Source: Asterias rubens
Lineage: Eukaryota
Direction: 5' to 3'
Assembly (NCBI RefSeq): GCF_902459465.1
Contig: NC_047075.1
Coordinates: 12,214,001 to 12,278,000, forward strand
DNA length: 64,000 nucleotides
The notes under the pieces are model-generated. The model made no database searches and was not told the DNA's origin. It worked only from the letters and a program-made list of their open reading frames with translations. Positions within the stretch are counted from its first letter, which is position 1. Each line of letters begins with the position of its first letter. This document shows positions 36,793 through 55,030 of this stretch, piece after piece. The position numbers were made by a program, and so were the translations under genes.

Positions 36793-37374
36793 TTATGCCC
36801 ATACGCGAGATTCAAAGTACTTTGTTATCTGACGAAGCGTTTTCTCATACAGTGCCATTCCCGAAGTGTTCAGGTGGACCCCATCAAGGTTATACCGAGA
36901 GTTCTTTAACCCTCTGTGCTCCCACAACCACCATTGGTCTTCCACAAAGGTCGACTGCTGAATAAGATCATTAAATCTCTCTGCTCGATCATTAAATTCT
37001 TCGAGTGAGACCTGACCACCCCGTAAACCTCCTGTCCTAGGGAGTACTGGCAGAAACACTATTACCTCTGGGTTAATACCCCTCTTGGGTAACTCATACA
37101 CAAAGTCACAGAGTGAAGAATGCACTTGGTTTGGATTAACATTTTTAGAACACAAATCATTTGTACCCAAGTCAATAATTAAAACTAAAGGATTTGCCTG
37201 CCGTAAATATTCATAATACTTCCTCGGCCTTGCCCGAATCCTACTTAAAGTGAGACCGCCCTCACCAATACATGTAACAGGAACTACCTTACTCTGTAAC
37301 TCAATTTTAAACTGAGAACCTCGCTTCCTTTTCAAGCGTTTAACAAAACTGTGCCCAAAAAGGACAAAACTCAT
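36793..37374 (-). CDS. SGNH/GDSL-type hydrolase (esterase) ORF3 of the Gypsy element, 193 aa, intact
   Basis: Block I LFGHSF, block II GEGG, block III LGTND, block V DGVHLN; Ser-Asp-His triad present. Lies between the pol stop and the PPT. Confidence 0.9.
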   Translation of the reverse strand: MSFVLFGHSFVKRLKRKRGSQFKIELQSKVVPVTCIGEGGLTLSRIRARPRKYYEYLRQANPLVLIIDLGTNDLCSKNVNPNQVHSSLCDFVYELPKRGINPEVIVFLPVLPRTGGLRGGQVSLEEFNDRAERFNDLIQQSTFVEDQWWLWEHRGLKNSRYNLDGVHLNTSGMALYEKTLRQITKYFESRVWA

Positions 37375-37624
37375 TTTCCGTTTAAGAACACAATACTACA
37401 AAAGGGGGAGGAAGCCCTATCAACCCACTCCTTTACCACTTAATCAATTACAAATTTACACAATTTCCTATCACCATGTCAGTCCACTGGTAGCCAGAAT
37501 ACCCAGTGGTGCCCTACAGTAAGGTGTGCCATTGCGGAAACTGGATGCCCCAAGTCTTTCCAGCAAGACAACTCCCTGACCTTCTGCAATCACTGAGAAC
37601 CCCCGCCACCAGAGTAAAGACAAA

Positions 37625-40600
37625 TCACTTAATAGCTGAACAGGGCAATCTGAATGGATTGCTGTGTTTACCCCTTGTAGTTCGTTGAGAACTTCTTAGG
37701 TGCTCAGATGCAGGGCAATGTAAACTTGGGGGCTCCCCTACTTCTACATTGCTCACGCCCTGTAAATCTTGAACCAGAGACTGATCCCCTGAAGGCTCAG
37801 TGTGTAGGACCTCCCAATCTGAATCTCCATCAGACTCATCACTCTCATTTTCTGTGTCACTTTCTGCAAAGGGATCTAACCGCAAGAGTTTTCTATTAAC
37901 TACTCTTTCTGGGCCCCCCTTCAAGGGACGGATACGAAATACATCGCTATGCTCATTTATCCAAACGACCACATATGGGTCTCTTTCAAACTTGTCAGCC
38001 AGTTTGTGGCGTCCCTTGAATGCGCATTTTCTGAGTAGAACATGGGACCCAATCTCAATAGGTTTGCTAGGTTTTACTTTCCTATCATAAGTAGCCTTGT
38101 TGCGATTGCAGCTTTTTGCTACTCGTTCCTTTACTAACTCACTAGCTCTAGAGAGCAAAGAAGATTGTTCTCTGACAAAATCTTGATCCCAATCGTTATC
38201 AGTTCTCCCCAACATCTGGTCTAGAGGTATCAATGGTTCCCTACCAAACATAAGCAAATACGGCGCTACTCCAGTGGTGCAATGCGGAGTAGCATTATAC
38301 ACAAATACAAGGTGCTGTAAAAGGTCAGGCCACCTCCGCCTATCCCGCTCATCCATGGACTTAATGAGTCCAAACAGAGTCCGGTTGAAGCGCTCTGTTT
38401 GAGCGTTCCCCTCGGGGTGGTAAGGAGTTGTTCTGGTCTTTTTCATGCCGTACAATGCACACAATTCCCTCACAACTTCCCCTTCAAAATTCCGACCCTG
38501 GTCGCTGTGCAAACGACAAGGTATTCCATATTTGGAAAACCACTGATTCCTCAAGACTTTGGCAACAGTTACTGCATGTTGATCCTTACACGGATATGCC
38601 TGTACAAATTTTGTATAGATGTCGGTCATGACCAGAACATCCTCATAGCCTCCTGCCCCTCGATCAATTTTGACAAAATCTATGGCTAGCACTTCGAGTG
38701 GTCGAAATGCTAAAAGGTGCCGCATTGGCACTTTTGCTTGAGGCTCTGACGCCTTAGAGATTACACATTGTTCACAATGACCGATATGCCGACGCACTGA
38801 ACCAGCCATTTTGGGCCAAAACACCCGCCGCCTCAGGAGGGCACACGTTCTCACAACACCTTGATGCCCCCACCCATCATGACAACCCTCTAACACCCTC
38901 TGTTGTAAACTTGTGGGCATCAGTACTTGATCTAGTTCACCATGCAATGGGTCCATGACACGACGATGTAAAACACCATCCTTTTCTATGAACCTGGGCC
39001 ACTGCCACAACCACGATTTGATTTCTACTGGCTCCTCCCTTTCAGCCTGAAAAACTTCATTCGGTTTCCAACCTTGATCCCAACGTTCCCAGATACACTT
39101 CAGCACTGGATCAGCCCTTTGTAGGGCAGACAGCTGCTCTGGTGTCCACGATGGGAAAATACCTGATTGACACTTAACCTGTGGAGGTCCAGCCTTTGTA
39201 TCATGAGAAGTTAATACCTTATGTACCTCTATATGTTGCAATGGAACCACTGTGGAGTGGACCTTACATTGCAGTATTTCCTCAACTTCCCCTGTTAGTG
39301 AGTGACTTGGGTTGCGACTTAGTGCATCCGCTACACGATTACTAGCCCCTGATCTAAATTTCACATCAAAGGTAAAAGCTGCAAGTTGTGCTATCCAGCG
39401 CATTTCACATGCGCCCAACTTAGCTGTCTGTAGATAAGATAAGGGGTTATTATCTGTTAGCACTGTAAATGGTACCCCAAGGAGATAATCTCTAAATTTA
39501 TCAACCACAGCCCATTTTAGGGACAAAAGCTCCAACTTAAAAGAACTAAAATCGGGGTACCTAGCTTCAGCCCCCCTCAGCCCCCGACTAGCAAATGCAA
39601 CTGGATGTCTCTTGCCCTGCAAGGAGGCATCTATCTCCAACACAAATGGCCTAGAAAAATCTGGATATGCAAGCACTGGTGCTTGCGTCAAGGTCTGCTT
39701 TAATGTATCAAAGGCCACCTGTGCCTCAGAACTCCAACAAAATGGCGAAGGTTTGGATCTCGAATTTCCCTTAGCCAGTGAGGGCACTAAAGCATGCAAG
39801 GGTGCGGCAATTTTTGAAAAGCCGGGTACAAAGCGCCGGTAATAACCGGCCAGACCAAGAAATGACCGCAATTGTGCCCCTGTCTTAGGTATTGGCCAAT
39901 CCTCAATTCTCTTAATCTTGTCATTGTCTACTGCAACACCCTCTGGCCCTACCACATGTCCTAAGTAAGACACATGCCTACGAAATAACTTGCACTTTGC
40001 ACCCTTGATCTTAAGTCCAAAATCTGCCAATCTAGTGAAGACTCTGTCAAGCCTATCTATGTGTTCCTGTACCGTAGAGGAATATACCAGGATGTCATCT
40101 AAATAGATTAAAAGCTCTGATAAATTCAAGTCACCAAGGCACATCTCCATCACTCTCTGAAAGGTTCCAGGGGCATTTACCAGCCCGAACGGCATTCTCG
40201 TATATTCGAACAGCCCAAAAGGTACTCTGAATGCAGTTTTACTTATTGATTCTGAGTCCATTACAACCTGATGGTATCCATGGGCTAAATCTAATGAAGA
40301 AAAGTACCTTGCACCCTGGAGCGCCTCCAGCGACTCCTCGATACGAGGCAATGGAAATGAGTCTCGTACTGTTTTGGCATTAAGCCTCCTATAATCAACA
40401 CAAATCCTTAGCGACCCATCCTTCTTTTGGACCAATACAATGGGGCTGGCATAGGGGCTTTTACTCTTTTGTATGATACCTTGATCAAGAAACTTCTGGA
40501 GTAATTCCCTAACTTCTCTAAAATGTTGCGGCGGAATTCGTCTGTAAGGCTGGCTAATTGATTTATCATCAGTAGTGTCAATCTTGTGGGGAACCTTATC

Positions 40601-41812
40601 ACAAAGTCCTAAATCCAACGAATTCTGCGAGAACACCTTATCATGTTTCTGAATTAATTGCACAATTTTGTCCTGGTCTTCCTTACACAAATCAGCGCAT
40701 AAATCAAGACTTAATCCATAAGGAAGTTGGTACTCTGACCCATCCTCAAACACATACAACTCTCTTGCCCGTGACTCTACAGCATCCCCCATCTCAATGT
40801 CTAACTCATTGGAATCGACACCAGGGGCTCCCTCAGTACGACCAGTGTCTAAATATTCCCCAGACTCTGACAGACAATGATTCACTACAACATGAACACA
40901 ATCCACACCCGTCTCAAGTGCAACATTTGTCTTTGAGGATACCTCAGTCACGTAAGCAAGCTTTGTGTGTGGGGACAATTCAATCACCCGCATCCCTACA
41001 TTCGCTACCAACACATTTACAGTTCTACCACTAACTACTGTACACAGATCGTAAACGCGGCAATTTCCATCTATGTTACTGGTTTGACCTCCACTATCTG
41101 CACAGCTAGATAGACCCTCAACAAGGACAGTTTGCCCGTCAAGGCTACTTTGATTAGCCTGAACATAGCAGGTTATACTACGCACTTCCCTAGGCAACAA
41201 ATGTACTGGATTTCTACCTGTACGAGCACCCAGTGGGTCCCGTACACACTTATTTGCCCCATGTGACCCCTCAACTACTGGGTTTTTAGTCAGACTATAC
41301 CAATTAATGGCCATTGTCCATGCATCTGCATCTTTTTGTTCTAAATCAACCTCTATATCCTTCAGCTTATGAAGGACATTGCAACCCAACAATACTGGAA
41401 AACTTTTATGATTCCCTGCCTCACCCTTAGGAAATTCTTTGACCACCAAAAAATGTGCATCAATAGTCTGGTTATGTACCATCAGTGGGGCATGTATGTA
41501 CCCCTCAATTGGTACCTCACTATTCCCTGCCCCAAACACACGCAGGTAAGTACCTAGAGTTTTGACTCCACTCAATTTCCCTGCAAGGTGATCCCTATAA
41601 AAAGAGGCGCTAATCAGAGAAGTCTCTGCCCCGGTATCGAGGATACATTCCACTGGCACTCCAGCCAAAGCAATATGAGCCTTGGGGCTCTCTTTTACTA
41701 GACTGGTTAGTATGTCTTCATAAGACTTCTCTGTTAAACTTCCAACTGGTGAGGCCTTTCCAGATTGTTCCTCTGTCACTCGGCCTACAGTGGCAGAGAA
41801 GTCTGGTTTCCC
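37625..41812 (-). CDS. pol: Gypsy pol polyprotein (protease, RT, RNase H with an in-frame deletion, integrase), in the -1 frame relative to gag
   Basis: LDTGA protease; YLDD RT; IDASLQG|KRHPVAFASR RNase H lacking the usual LGAVL.Q strand; HHCC zinc finger; IDF...HSDQG...GNAQTERFNRTL integrase. Confidence 0.95.
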   Translation of the reverse strand, partial: GKPDFSATVGRVTEEQSGKASPVGSLTEKSYEDILTSLVKESPKAHIALAGVPVECILDTGAETSLISASFYRDHLAGKLSGVKTLGTYLRVFGAGNSEVPIEGYIHAPLMVHNQTIDAHFLVVKEFPKGEAGNHKSFPVLLGCNVLHKLKDIEVDLEQKDADAWTMAINWYSLTKNPVVEGSHGANKCVRDPLGARTGRNPVHLLPREVRSITCYVQANQSSLDGQTVLVEGLSSCADSGGQTSNIDGNCRVYDLCTVVSGRTVNVLVANVGMRVIELSPHTKLAYVTEVSSKTNVALETGVDCVHVVVNHCLSESGEYLDTGRTEGAPGVDSNELDIEMGDAVESRARELYVFEDGSEYQLPYGLSLDLCADLCKEDQDKIVQLIQKHDKVFSQNSLDLGLCDKVPHKIDTTDDKSISQPYRRIPPQHFREVRELLQKFLDQGIIQKSKSPYASPIVLVQKKDGSLRICVDYRRLNAKTVRDSFPLPRIEESLEALQGARYFSSLDLAHGYHQVVMDSESISKTAFRVPFGLFEYTRMPFGLVNAPGTFQRVMEMCLGDLNLSELLIYLDDILVYSSTVQEHIDRLDRVFTRLADFGLKIKGAKCKLFRRHVSYLGHVVGPEGVAVDNDKIKRIEDWPIPKTGAQLRSFLGLAGYYRRFVPGFSKIAAPLHALVPSLAKGNSRSKPSPFCWSSEAQVAFDTLKQTLTQAPVLAYPDFSRPFVLEIDASLQGKRHPVAFASRGLRGAEARYPDFSSFKLELLSLKWAVVDKFRDYLLGVPFTVLTDNNPLSYLQTAKLGACEMRWIAQLAAFTFDVKFRSGASNRVADALSRNPSHSLTGEVEEILQCKVHSTVVPLQHIEVHKVLTSHDTKAGPPQVKCQSGIFPSWTPEQLSALQRADPVLKCIWERWDQGWKPNEVFQAEREEPVEIKSWLWQWPRFIEKDGVLHRRVMDPLHGELDQVLMPTSLQQRVLEGCHDGWGHQGVVRTCALLRRRVFWPKMAGSVRRHIGHCEQCVISKASEPQAKVPMRHLLAFRPLEVLAIDFVKIDRGAGGYEDVLVMTDIYTKFVQAYPCKDQHAVTVAKVLRNQWFSKYGIPCRLHSDQGRNFEGEVVRELCALYGMKKTRTTPYHPEGNAQTERFNRTLFGLIKSMDERDRRRWPDLLQHLVFVYNATPHCTTGVAPYLLMFGREPLIPLDQMLGRTDNDWDQDFVREQSSLLSRASELVKERVAKSCNRNKATYDRKVKPSKPIEIGSHVLLRKCAFKGRHKLADKFERDPYVVVWINEHSDVFRIRPLKGGPERVVNRKLLRLDPFAESDTENESDESDGDSDWEVLHTEPSGDQSLVQDLQGVSNVEVGEPPSLHCPASEHLRSSQRTTRGKHSNPFRLPCSAIK

Positions 41813-42893
41813 GACCCTGTGTTTTGTGCATCTCCCATAGCCTGCCCTTGCCCCCCATTCGCTTTTTCGTGAGCCATACGAAGTTTACACTCATGCTTCA
41901 TGTGACCTGGGCGTTTACAATAAAAACAGCGAATCGGGGGCCTGTCCTGCCGCCTTCCTGAGCCTTCATACATGCCCTGGCTAGTTACCGTCCCACTTTG
42001 TTTCACCACTGCTTGCATAAGCGTAGTTATCTGTTCCTGCTGTTTGCAAAGAGTTTCTTGCTGTGTTTGCATACATTTAAGAATCTCTTGTTGTTGTTGC
42101 AACACTGTTTGCAACTGTGTGTCCCCTTGGGACTTGTTAACTACTTGGTTAATGCTAACATTAGCATCAGCCACTGGCTCGTCACTATTCAGATCATTTT
42201 CTGTACCTAGGTGATGCAAGTGCACACTTGCACCACGTCGAGAACCCCGAGGGTACTCCTCTAGATCTCTGAACAACTCGCGAGCTGAATCCCTCATTTC
42301 GGTAAAATCCTGATCCGGTTCAGCCAACTCTAAGCGCCTCAGCTCAAGCCTGACACCTTGATTCCTTGCGCCCGCCACAAACTGCCCAATCAAAACCCTA
42401 TCTCTCAAACCCTTCAATGCATCTTTCTCTGTTTCTGTAGCAACCTCTAAAATCCGATCATGCATTCGCATGAGCGAGCGGGAAAAATCCATAAGGGATT
42501 CGTCTTCCCTTTGCCGTCTTTCAAAAAGGGCCTTCTGAAGGGCCTGTACTGACTCCTCTGCCCCAAACTGACGCCGAAGGAGTTTTTTTAGCGCTGCATA
42601 GTCACCCGTTACATTCTCATTGTGGCATTTGATCTCATCGCGAGCAACACCCCCGCGAGGTGGTGGACAACCACTTTAGCCCTATCTACCTCAGGGATAC
42701 GACATTGTTGCAGATAAACCTCTGCATCTTCAAGCCATTCAATAATGGTCGGATCTCCCGGTTTACTAGGCCTACCATAGTATTTACCCAACTTCAAGGG
42801 CCTCTGAATGACATTCTTCGGTTTATCTTGCCGAAGTGCCTCGGTCAGCCCTGCGACCAAGCGCGTCACAAGATCAGCCTCTGGTACGGCCAT
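41785..42893 (-). CDS. gag: Gypsy gag (PNMA/Arc-like capsid region plus CCHC knuckle), broken by a 1-nt indel in a G-run at 42650-42654
   Basis: Adding one G joins HLAG to GVARDEIKC...QFG...RRQREDESLMDFSR; zinc knuckle CFYCKRPGHMKHEC. Confidence 0.9.
41806..41812 (-). promoter_or_regulatory. Candidate -1 ribosomal frameshift site G GGA AAC at the gag/pol overlap
   Basis: X XXY YYZ heptamer in the gag frame (TCG GGA AAC), 6 codons before the gag stop; a -1 shift enters the open pol frame (GKPDFSATVGRVTE). Confidence 0.75.
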
Positions 42894-45419: not shown

Positions 45420-48400
45420 CTATGCACAATGTACAGCCTTGGAGGATAATAGCATGGACAACTTTTGCCAGCAGAGGGCGTTACGGGGCAACAGTTCATT
45501 GAAATATTTATCGATGTGCGTTGTTGACTGATCTGTTGCCATTACACCTGTTACTCTTGGAGATATTTGTGGTGGTCTCCTTACAAAGTTATCTAGAAAC
45601 ATTGTATATTCTATAATAAAGTCTGTACTAATATTATATTGTTCTGGATGTCTTGGTTTGTGTTGTGTTCTTATTAAAATCAACGGCAACGGTTTATGAG
45701 AAAATGTTGGAGATCCGGTTCCGTCGAATTGATCTGTTGAATTCTGTCCTCTGAAGTTTAACATTGCTTCGTCTATTTCATTGTATTTTTATGTGTCATC
45801 TTGTACGGTTGTGTATACTTGAAAAGTTTGTTGTGCTTTATTGGCGGGACTTGGTATTGTCCCACTTTTATAGTTATATGCTCTATAGTTGTCTCCCACT
45901 TGTGTTAGTCGTTCTCTTGCACAGTGGTCAAAGTTTGCAGATGTTTCATTCTTCCAGTAGTTTCCTTGTTGATCTTGTAATCCGAAACAGCTTAGTGGAT
46001 CTGTTTTATCTGCTTGTAGCACTTGTTCTGTTCTTAGTGCCGTCTCACTTGCTATTCCTATTACTGATGTTCCATAGTTTGTTATTGTGTTGTCTACTCC
46101 AATTGTTGCATTTGTATATTGATATTTTGCATTGTCTATATCTCTGCATTGATCTCCTCCGAATATAATCTTTTGTCCCATTGGAATTGTATGTTCCCAT
46201 GTTTCTCCACTTGCTTTTCTTTCAAATGATCCGTAGTCTCTCCAATTTATTTCGTCGTCGCATCCCATAAAAGTGGTCGCTATTACTTGTTTGTTCCAGT
46301 CCATCTATATTTATTACACTTCTCATTGATTCTTCCATTTGTGCTGATATTGGGAAGTGTACCGTTCTTTTTTTGCAAAAAATAGTTAATGGCCTGACGT
46401 TTCGACCCTAGCAGAGTCTTTCTCGAAGGCTAAATGACAACACAACAAACATGAACAGGTAACTAAGTGAAACATAAGCAGTGAAGTGGAAATACATGAA
46501 TGGGGTTAGAAAGCATACATAAAACAGCAGGGGGTAAACAATGAATAGGGGGACAAAAAAGGGGGGGTGAAGGGAAGGGACTGGCTTGACCACAAGCAAG
46601 AATATGGAAACACAAAGGACAACATCAAGGGTGGTGAGGTTGGGTAAAAAGTAATTTATTAGTGAATGAGGCTCAGGCTAAAAGGCTATGGGGAAAAAAA
46701 AAAAAAAAAAGGGGAGACGGAAAAACAAAAGGTATATTACTCGTTTCCTTCTTGGATGTTCAGACCATGGGGTTGAATGGTCTGGAGGCGTCTAATCCAG
46801 AGTTTCTCCCTACTCAAACGCACAGTCTCTCTGTGGTTGCCTAGTGCCTCTATGCCCTGTAAGATCATGTCAGAAATGGAGTGATTAGGAAGATTGAAGT
46901 GATGACCTACAGGTGTATCTAGCTTTTGGGTCTTGACTGTAGATCTGTGGCCATAGAAACGCCTCTTGAGTGTAGTTCTTGTTTCACCTATATATTGAAC
47001 ACCACAGACTCTGCAAGATATGAGATAAATGAGATTAGTGGTGGTGCAGGTGACATGACCCCTTGTCTTATGGGTGGTACCGCCGGTGTTACTGGTGAAG
47101 GAGTCCGATTCCCTGATGTGTTGTCTACAGACGATGCATTTGGAGATGTTGGAACACCTAAAAGTTCCCTGCGGTAGAGGCGGATTAACATCATCATTAA
47201 TGGGAGGGACTTCTGCTCGGACAATGAGATCCCTGAGACTTGGTGGGCGTCTGTAGGCAACTATGGGTTCTTCCTGCACAGCACGTTGAAGTCGATCTGA
47301 TGTGTGAAGAATATGATGGTTAGAACTGGTTATTTTACGAATGGGAGGAAGTGAGGGGTGGAAAGTGACAACAAAAGGAACTTTCCCCGTAGGACTCTGT
47401 TGTTTCTTGGGTTCTTTTTTTGGTAATGTTTTTACATCATCTTCTAATGGATAATGTATTGTGTACCCTTTATTAAGTGATATTTCCATTGGTTTTATTT
47501 TAAATGCTCCACTCTTATCTACGAATAATTCAACTCTTACATCAGTACTTGTTGCTATTTCTAAAGTATTTACATCTCTACCTGGTTTATGTATATATTG
47601 TCTTAAATTCTTTAATTTTATTTTTAATCCTTTTATTTCACAGCAGTCGTATAATGTTGCAATTTCTTGCCATACATTTGGATCCATATATTGTTGAAAT
47701 TGATCTATACCAATTATATGCCACCCCCTTCATAAGTAAATTGAGCAAAATCTGCTGGTTTTGCTGTGGTTGATGGACATGGTATATTTATTTGTTTTAA
47801 CCCTGGGTTTTTATTTTCATCAATTGAATGACTAAATTCTTTCTTAAATACTTGTGGTCCACTATGAACTTTAAGTTGTTGTGGTCTATTTTTTAAACTT
47901 TCTTGATAACTGTCTGGAAATTTAAATTTCCTAATGCACCACCACCACCCCCTCCTGCGCCCCCATCGGCGCTTCTTGCTGCTCTACCCGCATCTGTTTC
48001 ATCTTCCCCATCTACTTCCATTGTTCCTTCTTTGTCGTGTTCCCCGTTATTATTGTTATGTTCTAATGCGTCTTCAAATGTTTCTTCGTCACTATCCTCT
48101 TTATTATTTTTTTCTGGAGGTTCGTAACTCTCTTCGTCACTGTCTAAATCTAAATCGTCGTCACTGTCTGCATCTGAAAAGGAGTCATAAGGGGATTACG
48201 AGATGGAGTCATTATCAATTGGGTCGGAATCATTTTGTTCAGGTGCTGGTATTTCTTTATTTTTCTCTTCAGCTATATCTGTTTTTTTCTTCTTCTTGTA
48301 TATCTCTACCAATACGTTCTAAATTATCTACACTAAAATGTTCAATTGGGATATTATTTACTGGTACACTTTGTAAAGCTTCAATATTCCTGACAGTTTT

Positions 48401-48949
48401 CCCTTCTCTTTGGGCTTGTAAAGCCTTATCTCTATTAATATTGGTTTTATATATAATTATTAACTCTTCGCATCATCAGATATCCTGCTCGACTTTTTTC
48501 GTTATTTTGTTGTGATGTTTTACCTAAATAATTTTTATATCCCACTGTGTGTAAATTCTTTTTTGCTTTTTGTTGCTACTTCTGTAAAGTCTATCCCAAA
48601 TTGTCTTCCCAATTGGGCTGCTGCTACTCCAATTATTCCCAATGTTCCTGACCATGGATTATCTCCTCTTGTAAATTGTTCCCCTATAAATTCTTGATCT
48701 GCTTATGTTCTATCCCCCCTTCTGCGTAATGCCTGTCATGATCTCTGGCGATGCGATCAGTTTCGTCTACGGGTTTATTATTATTTAAATTAGTTTCACC
48801 TGTTCTTGGACCTACGAAATTACTAGTTGGTACATGTAATTTATCATTAAAAAATCTCCAAAACTTATTTCGTCATCTATTTTAGTAAATTTGGTGTTGA
48901 TGTTAGAATTAGGCGGTGCATCTGCTGGTCTTTTCCCCCCTTTTGGCAT
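45420..48949 (-). pseudogene. VP1: Endogenous parvoviral element 2: VP1/VP capsid gene with PLA2 and Gly-rich region; frameshifted and interrupted by Penelope
   Basis: ATG 48949; NFVGP (48821-48807) and PVDETDRIARDHDRHY (HDRHY at 48740-48726) then ADQEFI, a parvoviral PLA2; acidic region; DGGAGGGGGGALG (~47967-47930); GWHIIGIDQFQQYMDPNVWQEIATLY...LKIKLKNL; continues at 46304-45420. Confidence 0.85.
46376..47410 (-). mobile_element. 5'-truncated Penelope-like retroelement (GIY-YIG endonuclease plus 3' pLTR-like tail) inserted into the viral capsid gene, 12-bp TSD
   Basis: VPFVVTFHPSLP...PIVAYRRPPSLRDLIV...NLIYLISC..CGVQYIGET...RF..H...REKLWIRRLQTIQPHGLN. TSD GTTCTTTTTTTG at 46364-46375 and 47411-47422. 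Confidence 0.92.
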
Positions 48950-48985
48950 TTTTGTCCCTGTACATGTATATACAATAGACACATA

Positions 48986-49306
48986 TTATTTATTATTATT
49001 TCTTATTTGTACTCGGATTTCATTTTCTTTTATACTTTTACCTTGATCTTTATGCATTGCCTTCAATTGTAACACCACACTCACCATATCTCTAAAATTA
49101 TCATTACTTACAAAATCAATTAACCAATCCTTCTTTCTATTGTTGTAAGCATTTAATCCATATTTGAAAAAGTCTTCCCAAAAGTCTTTTTCTGTTTTGC
49201 TTGGTGAAACTCTTGATTCATATTGCACATTTAATGTGTACAAGTCATATTCAAGTATTTGACCGGTTTCCCCATTATGTAGCTTTTGTTGGCTTCTTGT
49301 CCTCAT
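48986..49306 (-). CDS. 106-aa middle ORF between NS1 and VP1 (putative NP-like viral accessory protein)
   Basis: ATG 3 nt after the NS1 stop; its stop is 36 nt before the VP1 ATG; uninterrupted; no motif recognised. Confidence 0.6.
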   Translation of the reverse strand: MRTRSQQKLHNGETGQILEYDLYTLNVQYESRVSPSKTEKDFWEDFFKYGLNAYNNRKKDWLIDFVSNDNFRDMVSVVLQLKAMHKDQGKSIKENEIRVQIRNNNK

Positions 49307-49309
49307 ACT

Positions 49310-50910
49310 TTATGCTTCTGATGGATTGTCCTCCTTGACTAGTTGGATATCTCCTAAGATCGCCTCTTGTGTTTCCTTATCTATTGATGCTAGTAAGGAC
49401 TCTAGTTCTGGATCCGTTTCCTTCTGAAAAATATCGACGGAATCAATAAATTCTTTAAAGTCATTATCGATTTCCATCTGTTCTGGTTTTGGCTTGAAGT
49501 CCTCATTGATTATATCATCGGGGACATATTCGCCAAGATTTGGAACACCTGGTGTGTGTTGCAAGTCTTGAACTGTGTCTTGTCTTCGCAACTCGAAGAA
49601 CGGGATAGTATCTTTGTCATCTATGAGTGGGTACATGCCACTGATTTGGCTACTGTCACTCTCATAGCTAGTTTGTGGTTCGTCATGAGTATAACGCATC
49701 CGTTTTGGGAATGGTGTGTCCAGAATTTCGTATACCTCAGGTTCTTCATCCTGGGCTTGTCTCGTACGCTTACATGTGTGATTTTTACACGTACTTTTAT
49801 CGTGGGCATCGACTTCTAAGATGTGCTTCCAGTGAGCCGATGCCTCCATTCTTGTGAATTTCTGATTCCCTACATTTGTTTTATCCATGACATCTTTGAT
49901 GAGGGCTCCCATCAGAATTTTCCCTCTCCCTGTGTAATCGAAGTCTTTGATACCTACTGTGCAAACAATAAGGTCGACCATATTATTTATATGTTGATGG
50001 ATGGCGTGCTCTTGATACTTGTCTTGGACTTTGGCAACCCCCTTGATTAGTTTCGAATAACACCCTGGGTGCAAGTCGGCTGACTTGTCTCCCCAGGGTA
50101 GTGTTTCCCATTCTATTTTGTTCCATTTATGAAGTTTGCACCTGTTCATCAAAGCGTCTCGGTTTAGTGAATTTATGACGTGTTTGAAGGGGTGTTGGTT
50201 AGTAGTTATTATACATGGCACTCTACCAATTATTGCCGCCCCTGCAAATTTCACTGCAATTTCAGCGTTTTCCCCACCAAGTAGTTCTTTCATTTTCTCT
50301 GACATCTGATCAGTGATTACAAGTTCATTGAAAAGGGTCCACCTTTTCCCTTTCATGGACATGAACTGGAATACATTTGCATCAGTCTGTCCTCCCCCGC
50401 CAATGATTGCGTGGTTTTGGCACGCTCTCTGAATTGGTCTCATAATCCACGACTAATTCCCAGCATTACTGGGTCCGTGGATGCACAACGAATTTTTCTT
50501 TTTGTTGGTTGTTGCCTTATTGAACACATTATGAATTTCATCTAACCATGTGTCCCTATCTTCAGAATGTATTTTGAGGAATTCATTCATTGCAGTGATG
50601 GACTCCTCTTTACTCATGATCTGAGTGCTTGTTGTTTCGTCGTACTGTGCATTGGTACCGTATCGATTTTGATACGTCTCAATATACTCATTGAGAGACT
50701 TTGCGTACTCTACACTCTTATAGTGTTTGGCCGCATTTTCCCAGATGCTTTTTGCAATTTGAGGATTAATAGTTGCTCTGTGTAGCAGGATTTGGTCAGT
50801 GTCTTCCATTTTACTCATATGTTTCTTAAGTTCGGGGACGTTGTCTAGTGACGTCTCCCCATACCTACACGTAACACGGTAAAATAAATTAAACCTATGC
50901 TCTGATACTG
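49310..50910 (-). pseudogene. NS1: EVE2 NS1 C-terminal half: SF3 helicase, Cys/His cluster and acidic tail; a single in-frame stop inside Walker A
   Basis: KKNSLCIHGPSNAG(N*)SWIMRP Walker A; RWTLFNE Walker B; MKELLGGE...VKF; CIITTN motif C. ORFs 50818-50453 and 50443-49310 share a frame. Confidence 0.9.
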
Positions 50911-50950
50911 ACTCTTTACGCCCTGTTTCATATTTGATCCCATCTTCAGC

Positions 50951-52614
50951 ATGGCGACAGATGGAAGGACAGATTATGAGGATGTAAAACTTTACTCTAT
51001 CTGCGCCCGTTACTTTGATGAGGGGCTTGGGAAAGTCATGTCGGTGTTACTGTCCCTCCGTGAATGCAATAAAGCGTCTACAGGCGAAAACATTTTCAAG
51101 ATACTACATTTTCAAGAACTTGACGAGTCTCACGTTCCCTGGAAAAATCTTGTTATAGTTTTGCTGCAGACAATGCATCGGTCATGCTGGGAAACAGAAG
51201 TTGCGGCATTTTTTACTACACGGGCATCATCTGTTTACAATTCAGGTTGGTGGCTTCAAAAGTCAATTCAGTTTGTTATTTAATTAACATGCATGCCATA
51301 ACTATTCAATTGTCCAAAATATGATTAAATTATGGTAGTTTTTAGACTTGGAGAGGATATAACCAAGAAAGACTAAATTTTAATCGATTTGTAGATCAGT
51401 TTGTTAATAAGTAAAATATACATGTATACGATATGTAGCATATTCTTATTCATACAACAATCTGAGCATTTGGGTTGACCACCCGTAGAGGAACCTCTGC
51501 CAAATTTTCCAATTTATTTCCGTTATGAAAATTATTGGCAACGCCCAAGTGAAGCAATATGTTATGCACCTGTCAGTATTCAATGAATGTAGGGGGGCCT
51601 ACTCACTGCAGTGCTACTTGTTTTTCTTCACAGGATGTGCTTGTCATTTGATGCACCTTGCTGCTGGTAAAGCAGCTGATCAACACCCTGTCAAGGTTGT
51701 TGAATTACTAGTCGATATATATTACTACCTCGAGAAGAGCAGCAAACGGAAACAAAAGTTCAGGGTGTGTCAAGAGAGGGCCGACGTTCCTAAACACAAG
51801 ATAGTCAACAAGTCTCTACCCGGTAGCTGTCATTAGAAAAGTACATCACACGACTCATGGAACAATGGAATGCAATACTTCCATACTTTCAAGGTCAGAT
51901 GGTCAGATGGCACTTGAGAATCAAAAAAAGGCAAAAGGCAGCTCCAAACGGAAAGATGCTCCCACTAAAACTGCTGAAACTGCTAAACTGAAGAAACAGA
52001 AGATAACCCATAGGGCGACTCCTGACTCTTCTAAGACATCCACTACTGCCAAGCCATCATCCATTGCCAGCACTTCCAAGCCACCAACCAGCACTGCCAA
52101 GCAACCAACCGGCACTGCCAAGCAACCAACCGGCACTGGCAAGCAACCAACCGGCACTGCCAAGCAACCTTCCAGCACTGCCAAGCAACCAACCAGCACT
52201 GCCAAGCAACCAACCAGCACTGCCAAGCAACCGACCAGCTCTGCCAAGCAACCGACCAGCACTGCCAAGCAACCTTCCAGCACTGCCAAGCAACCGACCA
52301 GCACTGCCAAGCAACCAATCAGCACTGCCAAGCCATCAACCAGCACTGCCAAGCAACCATCCAGCACTGCCAAGCAACCAACCAGCACTGCCAAGCAACC
52401 AATCAGCACTGCCAAGCCATCAACCAGCACTGCCAAGCAACCATCCAACACTGCCAAGCAACCAACCAGCACTGCCAAGCAACCAATCAGCACTGCCAAG
52501 CCATCAACCAGCACTGCCAAGCAACCAATCAGCACTGCCAAGCCATCAACCAGCACTTCCAAACCATGCACTGACAGCAATAGGAATACATCAACTTCCA
52601 ATACTGCCAAGTGA
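50951..52614 (+). pseudogene. hAT transposase catalytic core (intron-containing, frameshifted) ending in a Ser/Thr/Pro-rich repeat
   Basis: MATDG.TD (first catalytic Asp), ASTGENIF, GCACHLMHL (CxxH), DIYYYLEKSSKRK, RLMEQWNAILPYF. Confidence 0.8.
52043..52570 (+). repeat. 21-bp coding minisatellite (STAKQPT-type), about 24 units with a higher-order pattern
   Basis: Variants of gcactgccaagcaaccaacca; the QPS-QPT-QPI-PST block recurs. Confidence 0.95.
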
Positions 52615-52814: not shown

Positions 52815-55030
52815 GTAGAGGCGGGTAAATTCGACAGGGAGCAGAATTCGACAGGTCATTAATGATATGCATGATAAAATAAATACATCAGAGCTTGTAG
52901 TAAAAACAAATGTGTCATGTGTCTTACTTTTCCGGCTGATTGTTCTCGTCGTTCTAACAATTTTATTAGAAGTTCCAAGAAAGAGAAGAAATACGCTGAA
53001 AACTAGGTGAGTACATGCAGTGCGCTATACGCGCCATTGCTGTTGTGTGACGTAAGAGGTGTAGAATGCCCAGGGGGGCCATAGAAACATCAGAGAATAG
53101 TTCATGAGAGAATTTCATTTGGCCAATTTTCACGACGGGTCTACTATGGAATATAAGGGTGTGGGAACATAGGGGTGACGGAATATAGGGGTGTCGGAAT
53201 ATAGGTGAGTTGTCGGAATATAGGGTTGTCGGAACAAAGGGCTGTTGGAACATAGGGATGTCGGAATATGGAGCAGTCACCGGAATTGTGATGATAAATG
53301 TTAGTTAAAGGGGGGTTGGGAACTTGTCAACATTCGTCCATTAAACAATGTTCCTTAAATATTAATTTCAGGATCATGCTTCGCACCAAGAAACCATACT
53401 CTGCGGAGACACTTTAACGGGCATACAACTCCTTCACAAATAGTGAGATGTCCGTAAACAGAGCCAGCCGAGTGTTTGAAGTTCCACAAACAACACTCAT
53501 GGACAAAGTTCACCACAGAACACCCATCCACACCACCCAAGGACCCAAGCCTATACTCACGACGGAAGAGGAGAAGCAGCTGGCAGACTGGGTCATTCAA
53601 ATGGCTAAATTTGGTTGTGGCCGCACACGGAAAGAGCGGGTGCTGGTGGTGAAGAAGATCATCGACGAAGACGGGCTAGCCAACCCCATCAAGAACAACA
53701 CGCCAGGGAAGGAGTGGGTCAGTTTTCTGAAACTTCATCGAGAAATCTCCCTTAGAGTTCCTGAGGCCTTGGGCAAAGAGCGAGCCTGTGTGACCAAAGG
53801 AAAGATCTACAGATAGTTTGACGTAATGGCAAGATATTTTAAAGGTGAACATGTTGACAGCGGCAACCTCAGCATCTTTAACAACCCTGAGAGGATATTC
53901 AAAGCTGACGAAAGCGGGTTTCCACTGGCAGGAAAGACGTACTACGCAGAGCTAAAGACATATACCAGCAGACGTCATGGGATAAAACCCGGATAACCAT
54001 CATGGCGTGTGCCAATGCACCAATGATGAGGGGCTAGGTTTAACTACAACCACGTGGCAGGGGCACCTGAGGGCACATCAGTTTCTTCCAACAGTAAAGT
54101 CACGCCTAATTAGTCTCCCTGTAATTCTCTTCGTTGCTGGACATAGTACCAACGGCAACCTGCAGACGGCTATGTTTTGCAGAGATAGTGGCATAATCCT
54201 ATACTTTTTTTATTGCCTCCCATCCCATTGCACCCATCTAATTCAACCCCCCGATGTAGCTGTGTTCCGGTCGCTGAAGAAGGAGTGGTTTGACTGCGTC
54301 CGCAAGTACCAGACGGACAACCCTGGTGCCCAAGTTACAAAGAAGAGTTTTGCAGTGGTCTTCAATATCTCTTGGAGATCGTCAGCCATTGCGACCAGTG
54401 CCATTAATGGTTTCAGGAAATGTGGGCTCTTTCCCTTGAATCGGCAAGCTGCGACATTAGTAAGCTGCAGCATCAAGTGTTCCCACACCTTGGCAGCCTC
54501 GCTGAAAGCAACCAAGCACCTCAACCTCAAATCAATCTCCCCCTGAAAGAAATGACACAGCCCTCCGCACCATCAGAGAAACACGCCGCCCCCTTCGCAC
54601 CATCAGAGGAATACGCCACTGCCTCCTCTGCACAAGCGGCACTCGACACCCTAGAAAGTATTATTTCTCCAGGGAACAGACAGCTATTCGTCAGGCGACG
54701 AGCGGAAGGTTACAACTTAGAGGGCGACGAGTTGTATACAGCATGGAACAACCTGATTGAATCTGCTGAGGACATCACTGTAGCCCCTCAAGATCGGGGA
54801 CTGGATCCAGTTCCACACGCTAGCTCCAGCCCCTGGTACAGATCCATTCTTCAGACGAAACACATTGCGGTGCTACTACCACGTCAGCAGTCTTTTATAA
54901 TTACCTGAGGAACCCAGTTCACCCCAAGAAAGTGCCAGCCGCACTAACCAAAACGACCAAGTTCCCAAAGCTGTTTCAGGTTCAAGTTTCATCGCCTACC
55001 TCCACGAAAAGGAAAAGAAAAAAAAAACGG
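52815..55030 (+). mobile_element. Decayed pogo-family transposon: putative left end ~52815 and transposase from ATG 53376 (HTH_psq, CENP-B HTH, DDE_1)
   Basis: MSVNRASRVFEVPQTTLMDKV; GPKPILTTEEEKQLADWV; PGKEW; (N)ADESGFPL; LPSHCTHLIQPPDVAVFRSLK; several stops and frameshifts. Confidence 0.85.

Follow-up and report, generated by a model that had tools for sequence, protein, structure and literature searches.

What is the parvovirus-like element that interrupts the 64,000-nucleotide stretch of the Asterias rubens genome analysed here (the window; positions 12,214,001 to 12,278,000 of contig NC_047075.1), and does it represent a new kind of parvovirus? Our first-pass annotation had suggested an undescribed lineage from an invertebrate host, combining traits of chaphamaparvoviruses with those of the subfamily Parvovirinae. 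In our present assessment, the element is very probably a broken, doubly truncated parvovirus residing in host DNA, which belongs to a new branch, sister to the starfish parvo-like viruses published as Caledonia and Millport, and is a likely inert fossil; it would stem from one of several, likely independent, insertions into the germ line. The invertebrate host is supported, but the lineage can no longer be called undescribed, since starfish members of it, with an identical arrangement of genes, were already in print, an outcome that the first-pass annotation had itself named as a refutation and that now largely applies.

The element lies on the minus strand at about 45510-50950, and both of its ends are missing. 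These limits, obtained by tblastn and blastn comparison with sister copies and, on the right, from single contigs crossing the junction, replace the 45420..50910 proposed at first for what is otherwise the same element. It sits within a 14.7-Mb contig, and single contigs, differing in 0-5 letters, span the virus-host junction near 50950 in all 4 runs, which stem from 4 studies (one of these runs may be the source); among the pieces listed, the left junction was spanned in a single run. The window copy is chromosomal and shared across samples.

The genes follow each other on the minus strand in the order NS1, middle open reading frame (ORF), VP. The NS1 remnant (49310..50950, minus strand), recognized by homology, comprises the SF3 helicase and the C-terminal region: the NS1 of B19 matches it across the helicase (E 4.6e-5) and one sister copy matches PF01057 (E 4.4e-9). 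An NS1 with an SF3 helicase, as expected of the Parvoviridae, is present. The helicase seen initially is real, but it belongs to the C-terminal part of an incomplete protein: NS1 homology begins only at 50950, equivalent to residue 354 of an 840-amino-acid (aa) relative, and the HUH domain is therefore absent from the window copy. An HLH-type motif was found in sister copies by pattern alone, with no Pfam match. The Walker A motif, initially read as KKN..GPSN.GK, survives in part, given that the window has GPSNAGN followed by an in-frame stop (50453-50455), and the GK is found in sister copies only.

VP opens with an ATG at 48949. Its N-terminal half (47423..48949, minus strand; homology, with PF00740 at E 0.045 for 47424-47729) is scattered over several frames with stops and holds the unique region, an acidic stretch, a Gly tract (about 47936-47966) and the first capsid-core strands. 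The core continues, by homology, at 45510..46363 (minus strand), with an in-frame stop at 45789-45791; relatives extend about 180 aa beyond the point, close to 45510, at which the homology ceases. Both the Gly tract and the GWHII..YMDPNVWQ segment reported at first are indeed present in the window VP. Neither a whole NS1 nor a whole VP can be encoded by this copy. The VP of the lineage is a jelly-roll capsid protein, as indicated by a PF00740 match in an unbroken relative (E 8e-4, under the cut-off), by the Atlas result for the Millport VP (feature score 0.95; TM 0.53-0.58 to PF00740 clusters, from a poor model) and by the profile match described below. AlphaFold predicted the capsid region with too little confidence for use (pLDDT 29.6 and 30.7), Foldseek returned nothing at E up to 0.001, although the rows it listed were all parvovirus capsids, and VIA-align recovered nothing more specific than generic jelly rolls (Z up to 6.8); none of these was used as support. 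An 11-row VP profile found nothing under E 0.29 among Protein Data Bank sequences, and a local hidden Markov model was unable to rank the reference capsids (best 13.2 bits).

The relatives of the element were described in PMC6085071 as Caledonia and Millport parvo-like sequences of starfish that yield antisense RNAs resembling PIWI-interacting RNAs (piRNAs) and are likely endogenous, although integration could not be tested there; according to PMC7737747, A. rubens elements were traced to the genome. In line with this, one VP in the genome is identical to ASM94081.1, and the primer pairs of Caledonia 1, 2 and 3, which are thus present in the same genome as the window element, match exactly within one ~30-kb cluster (loci L017-L019, G000:C10 at about 10.748-10.776 Mb). 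Of the 8 published primers tested, the Millport pair does not match in this way, and the window has no site for any of the 8 at up to 3 mismatches. The window group shares with the Caledonia/Millport viruses the monosense gene order, the PLA2-like segment, the Gly tract, the core motifs and a VP of ~985 aa, and NS1 and VP homology together with helicase monophyly place it in the same lineage. The two differ in that the helicase region is 54-56% identical (46% over 413 aa when the window-group NS1 is compared with that of Millport), the VP pieces are 38-64% identical, and even the best-conserved stretch reaches only about 68% nucleotide identity. Moreover, the Walker A string of the window group is absent from the alignments of PMC6085071, the table of which shows at most two ORFs per virus, with neither a middle nor a 5′ ORF, and the window copy is broken. 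No named record of the window group was found in protein searches, in the PMC6085071 alignments or in a literature search that did not cover subscription papers. Thus, by sequence comparison, the window group is a new sister branch of a known, still unclassified lineage.

Where does this lineage fall within the Parvoviridae? When 1.84 billion representatives were searched, 517 matches resulted; among the 150 listed, two full-length NS1 proteins with 35% and 33% identity extend the lineage (P0029 and P0030, with NS1 of 905 and 856 aa on 5.8- and 6.8-kb contigs). No relative emerged from viral and metagenome contigs, which gave 63 and 215 pattern hits, none of them confirmed. The helicase tree was built from 142 columns and 71 rows, including 30 unnamed hits hand-picked for the outer clades; four near-duplicate references were dropped. 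A pattern scan yielded 116 stretches, mostly large contigs, a single one of which (L153) was used. The reference labels rest on sequence motifs, one named cluster and known genome layouts. In this tree, the starfish lineage is a clade with 100/100 support, inside which the window group and the published viruses unite at 99/94. It falls outside a 100/100 clade of 14 Parvovirinae references, a 99/97 clade of 10 Densovirinae rows and a separate helicase clade of 4 chaphama-type rows, and grouping with the iteradensovirus, which would have contradicted the original proposal, is rejected (p-AU 0.005, approximately unbiased (AU) test). Accordingly, the idea of a deep branch outside named genera holds for the genera and subfamilies sampled: by its helicase, the lineage is neither nested in Parvovirinae nor in Densovirinae (Iteradensovirus, Aquambidensovirus), and lies outside the sampled chaphama-, hepan- and penstyl-type viruses. 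However, AU tests run on an earlier tree set did not reject Parvovirinae (p-AU 0.33), chaphama-type viruses (0.10) or the hepan-like row (0.47) as the sister group; we therefore claim none.

When an 11-row profile of the lineage capsid region was compared with reference profiles, it matched 37 Parvovirinae capsids at 89% (E 2e-6, over 88 of 478 columns) and 4 chaphama capsids at 32%, with no match to 21 ambisense densoviruses (0.7%) or to hepan and penstyl capsids (under 1%); reversed controls reached up to 0.4%, and chaphama and densovirus capsid profiles themselves matched Parvovirinae at 7% and 4.9%. The capsid core thus appears likely to be detectably similar to vertebrate-parvovirus capsids, unlike densovirus capsids, although ranking this likeness at the genus level is unsafe because single-genus profiles range from 2.5 to 86%. 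The PLA2-like motif in the VP unique region (48688..48842, minus strand; PF08398 and motif comparison) was initially called a clear parvoviral PLA2. The segment does score above the Pfam cut-off (29.4 bits against 23.9), but it extends over two frames, with the AD..F part in the other frame, and group-B VPs, that is, those of the other group of copies in the genome, remain under the cut-off. All 7 copies retain HD..Y, the calcium loop is altered (GPG in 1 of 7 copies only), and the spacing from GP to HD is 22, three residues longer than the 19 found in 37/37 Parvovirinae and 16/21 densoviruses. In profile comparison, this segment fits densoviruses (97.8%, E 7e-13) slightly better than Parvovirinae (95.8%, E 7e-9).

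The lineage could be seen, then, as a recombinant that derived its helicase from one parvovirus line, its capsid core from a vertebrate-type line (Parvovirinae or chaphama) and its PLA2 from densoviruses, a scenario concerning the origin of the virus that is compatible with the fossil described above. The different affinities of capsid and PLA2 speak for it; on the other hand, the capsid match covers only a fraction of the columns and varies greatly among genera, and plain descent would be sufficient, given that a sister position to Parvovirinae or chaphama-type viruses is not rejected. We consider such recombination possible, with the odds against it.

Bocaparvoviruses resemble the element in having a middle gene between NS1 and VP, a PLA2 with a Gly tract and a weakly similar capsid core, but their NP1 is twice the size of the middle ORF, and the helicase of the element falls outside Parvovirinae. 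The bocaparvovirus plan invoked at first therefore agrees by position and fails by homology: the middle ORF matched none of 10 NP1 sequences (1.3% and 0.2% probability) and, judging from these comparisons, is not NP1. Chaphamaparvoviruses (Hamavirinae) are likewise monosense, and the suggested resemblance was borne out by a 50-column capsid segment including GWHII that aligns with chaphama-type capsids at 30% identity; unlike the starfish lineage, they lack a PLA2 motif in 4/4 reference VPs (~500 aa), and their NP, which overlaps NS1, is unrelated to the middle ORF, with no match between the two. Iteradensoviruses and sea-star densoviruses share invertebrate hosts and PLA2, the iteradensovirus being in addition monosense with a Gly tract, whereas the described sea-star densoviruses are presented as ambisense in PMC7737747, and Densovirinae differ from the lineage in the helicase and in the absence of a capsid-core match. 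The PLA2 and Gly tract, taken initially to recall Parvovirinae, are present but less specific than assumed, because densoviruses, too, have Gly tracts and include monosense genomes with PLA2, as noted in PMC6521121.

The genome holds two small genes that appear to have escaped annotation. The middle ORF (48986..49306, minus strand) encodes 106 aa of no known family, is uninterrupted and ATG-led, begins 3 nt past the NS1 stop and ends ahead of the VP ATG; the non-overlapping arrangement pointed out at first is valid for the window copy but not for group-B copies, in which this ORF shares sequence with both the end of NS1 and the beginning of VP. Its ratio of nonsynonymous to synonymous differences (pN/pS) is 0.22-0.38 between the window and three sister copies, compared with 1.0-2.8, and 11-24 stops, in shifted frames. 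The corresponding substitution rate ratio (dN/dS) is 0.10-0.25 in 6/6 pairs of group A (the window group) and 0.21-0.92 in 10 pairs of group B, which account for all 6 of the 16 pairs at 0.48-0.92. The middle ORF thus evolves, as judged from these ratios, as a protein under purifying selection. Group A and group B middle ORFs do not match as profiles (0.5%), and their homology is accordingly positional. Upstream of NS1, a further ORF of 60-74 aa, in which a single hydrophobic segment precedes basic residues, is found in the 7 copies examined; it was lost from the main window copy and kept in a second fragment (13065..13259, minus strand, 64 aa from a conserved ATG, by comparison of copies). 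With pN/pS of 0.33-0.42 in all 8 within-group pairs tested (9 possible), it too evolves under apparent purifying selection, and its product, for which Pfam offers nothing at E up to 10, is predicted to be a membrane protein. Both ORFs are likely to be genuine, so far unannotated genes.

How did the lineage come to populate the genome? Of 30 candidates from a helicase search of the genome, at least 25 matched, and these form two groups: group A with six further loci at 72-84% identity, and group B mostly at 45-59% identity, tandem arrays included. In the 17 stretches fetched, copies of both groups carry NS1, a middle ORF of ~95-106 aa and then VP, with uninterrupted frames in some group-B copies. 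Group-B copies have palindromes of about 119 nt on the 5′ side of NS1; no terminal hairpins were found at the window copy, which is truncated. Between most group-A copies, the helicase has pS of 0.73-0.88 and pN of 0.10-0.22. Since synonymous sites are near saturation and replacement sites are not, the divergence would have arisen under selection, before insertion, pointing to several independent insertions of already diverged viruses. Two observations weigh against this account of independently inserted, inert copies: the L015 copy is 88% identical to the window, so that some copies may be host duplications, and the intact middle ORF, which fits chance over 106 codons, fits retention as well. 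In addition, two group-A copies (L012 and L014, G000:C24) lie ~465 kb apart in opposite orientation with flanks in common and may represent a duplication or an uncollapsed haplotype; given these shared flanks and the identity of L015, some host duplication is likely.

Parvoviridae replicate by NS1-driven rolling-hairpin synthesis, and their PLA2 is exposed through a Gly hinge for escape from the endosome. By analogy, the source virus would likely have had a linear ssDNA genome with hairpin ends, replicated in the same manner, and four genes on one strand, namely, the small membrane-type ORF, NS1, the middle ORF and a VP of ~985 aa that has a PLA2-like unique region and a Gly hinge. After insertion, stops and altered frames would have accumulated in the copy as it decayed, and VP would then have received a Penelope-type element. 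At present, the window copy is most likely inert; any remaining role might be that of an antisense piRNA template, as extrapolated from the sister group.

The host might keep the window copy as an antiviral piRNA template or might have co-opted the middle ORF. Group-B sequences yield abundant antisense 5′U RNAs of 26-30 nt according to PMC6085071, the insertion is common to several samples, and transposon remnants are plentiful in the window (Gypsy-type, LINE-type and HTH_psq matches among 21 ORFs scanned); given such surroundings and the processing of the sister group, piRNA production from the locus is plausible. However, at about 68% nucleotide identity in its best stretch, the window copy could hardly target group-B viruses, and the low dN/dS between copies reflects viral rather than host evolution. 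Such retention by the host therefore strikes us as unlikely, and a decayed fossil remains the preferred reading.

PMC6521121, a 2019 review, called the starfish viruses closely related to Hepandensovirus, and they might accordingly be divergent members or close sisters of Hepanvirinae. Both have very large VPs, and grouping with the hepan-like helicase was not rejected. Once hepan-type genomes were added, however, hepan and penstyl grouped together (94/90) without the starfish lineage, the hepan capsid profile matched at 0.7%, the PLA2 motif was found in 0/3 hepan loci and the gene order differs. Judged by helicase, capsid and PLA2, the lineage belongs neither to Hepanvirinae nor to Penbrevirinae, and we hold a hepandensovirus affinity to be quite improbable. 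Contamination by an exogenous virus or mis-assembly, to which the possibly over-assembled group-B tandem arrays on a 52-kb contig might lend some credence, is largely refuted for the window copy and can be practically dismissed in view of its stops, its frame changes, the host transposon with flanking repeats, the 14.7-Mb contig and the recurrence of the junction in independent runs. That 52-kb contig (G000:C78, L022-L027) consists largely of head-to-tail group-B copies with ~7.7 kb spacing and may reflect a concatemer insertion, host amplification or over-assembly.

The window copy by itself is an unremarkable viral fossil in decay; of greater importance is the lineage, which the genome shows to be about twice as diverse as reported. 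According to PMC13426907 (2026), PLA2 is confined to two subfamilies, apart from rare transfers; here, a PLA2-like VP domain is found in a lineage with a helicase outside both PLA2-bearing subfamilies, and the capsid of this lineage matches Parvovirinae better than do those of chaphama-type viruses or densoviruses. This combination bears on the origin of the vertebrate parvovirus capsid and on parvovirus taxonomy. We would suggest, very tentatively, that the starfish lineage is an unrecognized branch of Parvoviridae at the rank of a subfamily, with four genes on one strand, one of them for a small membrane protein 5′ of NS1; in that case, it would be the invertebrate-deuterostome relative of the vertebrate Parvovirinae capsid, and the host genome would hold many of its diverged strains as a piRNA archive.

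The transposon within VP is a Penelope-type GIY-YIG element of 1,035 bp (46376..47410, minus strand; PF01541 above cut-off), flanked by an exact 12-bp direct repeat (46364..46375 and 47411-47422), likely a target-site duplication, and loose ends pile up at its edge (46374-46380). Its family has 41 near-full-length places, including that in the window, at 93-100% identity, out of 48 matches (40 of 2,328 candidates scored). Because this high-copy family is mostly 97-98% identical to the insert, the element probably arrived recently. The unit has a fixed length of ~1.03 kb, the same ends at many places and a GIY-YIG domain with no reverse transcriptase match, and is likely a non-autonomous family. 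A 330-aa open frame that joins VP and GIY-YIG (46740-47729) was treated as a chance in-frame insertion.

Elsewhere in the window, a second group-A element consists of a broken N-terminal half of NS1 (11391..12865, minus strand; homology to relatives) and the 5′ ORF; because ~135 NS1 codons overlap with those of the main element, the element at 11391-13259 is a different copy. A Gypsy-type retrotransposon at 36796-42675 (minus strand) comprises gag and a pol frame that runs without interruption for 1,419 aa, with a GDSL/SGNH-like ORF downstream. Finally, a 21-bp tandem array (23.6 copies, 52067-52562) lies within a 269-aa frame rich in Thr, Ala, Lys, Gln and Pro, near an HTH_psq fragment at 53418-53813.

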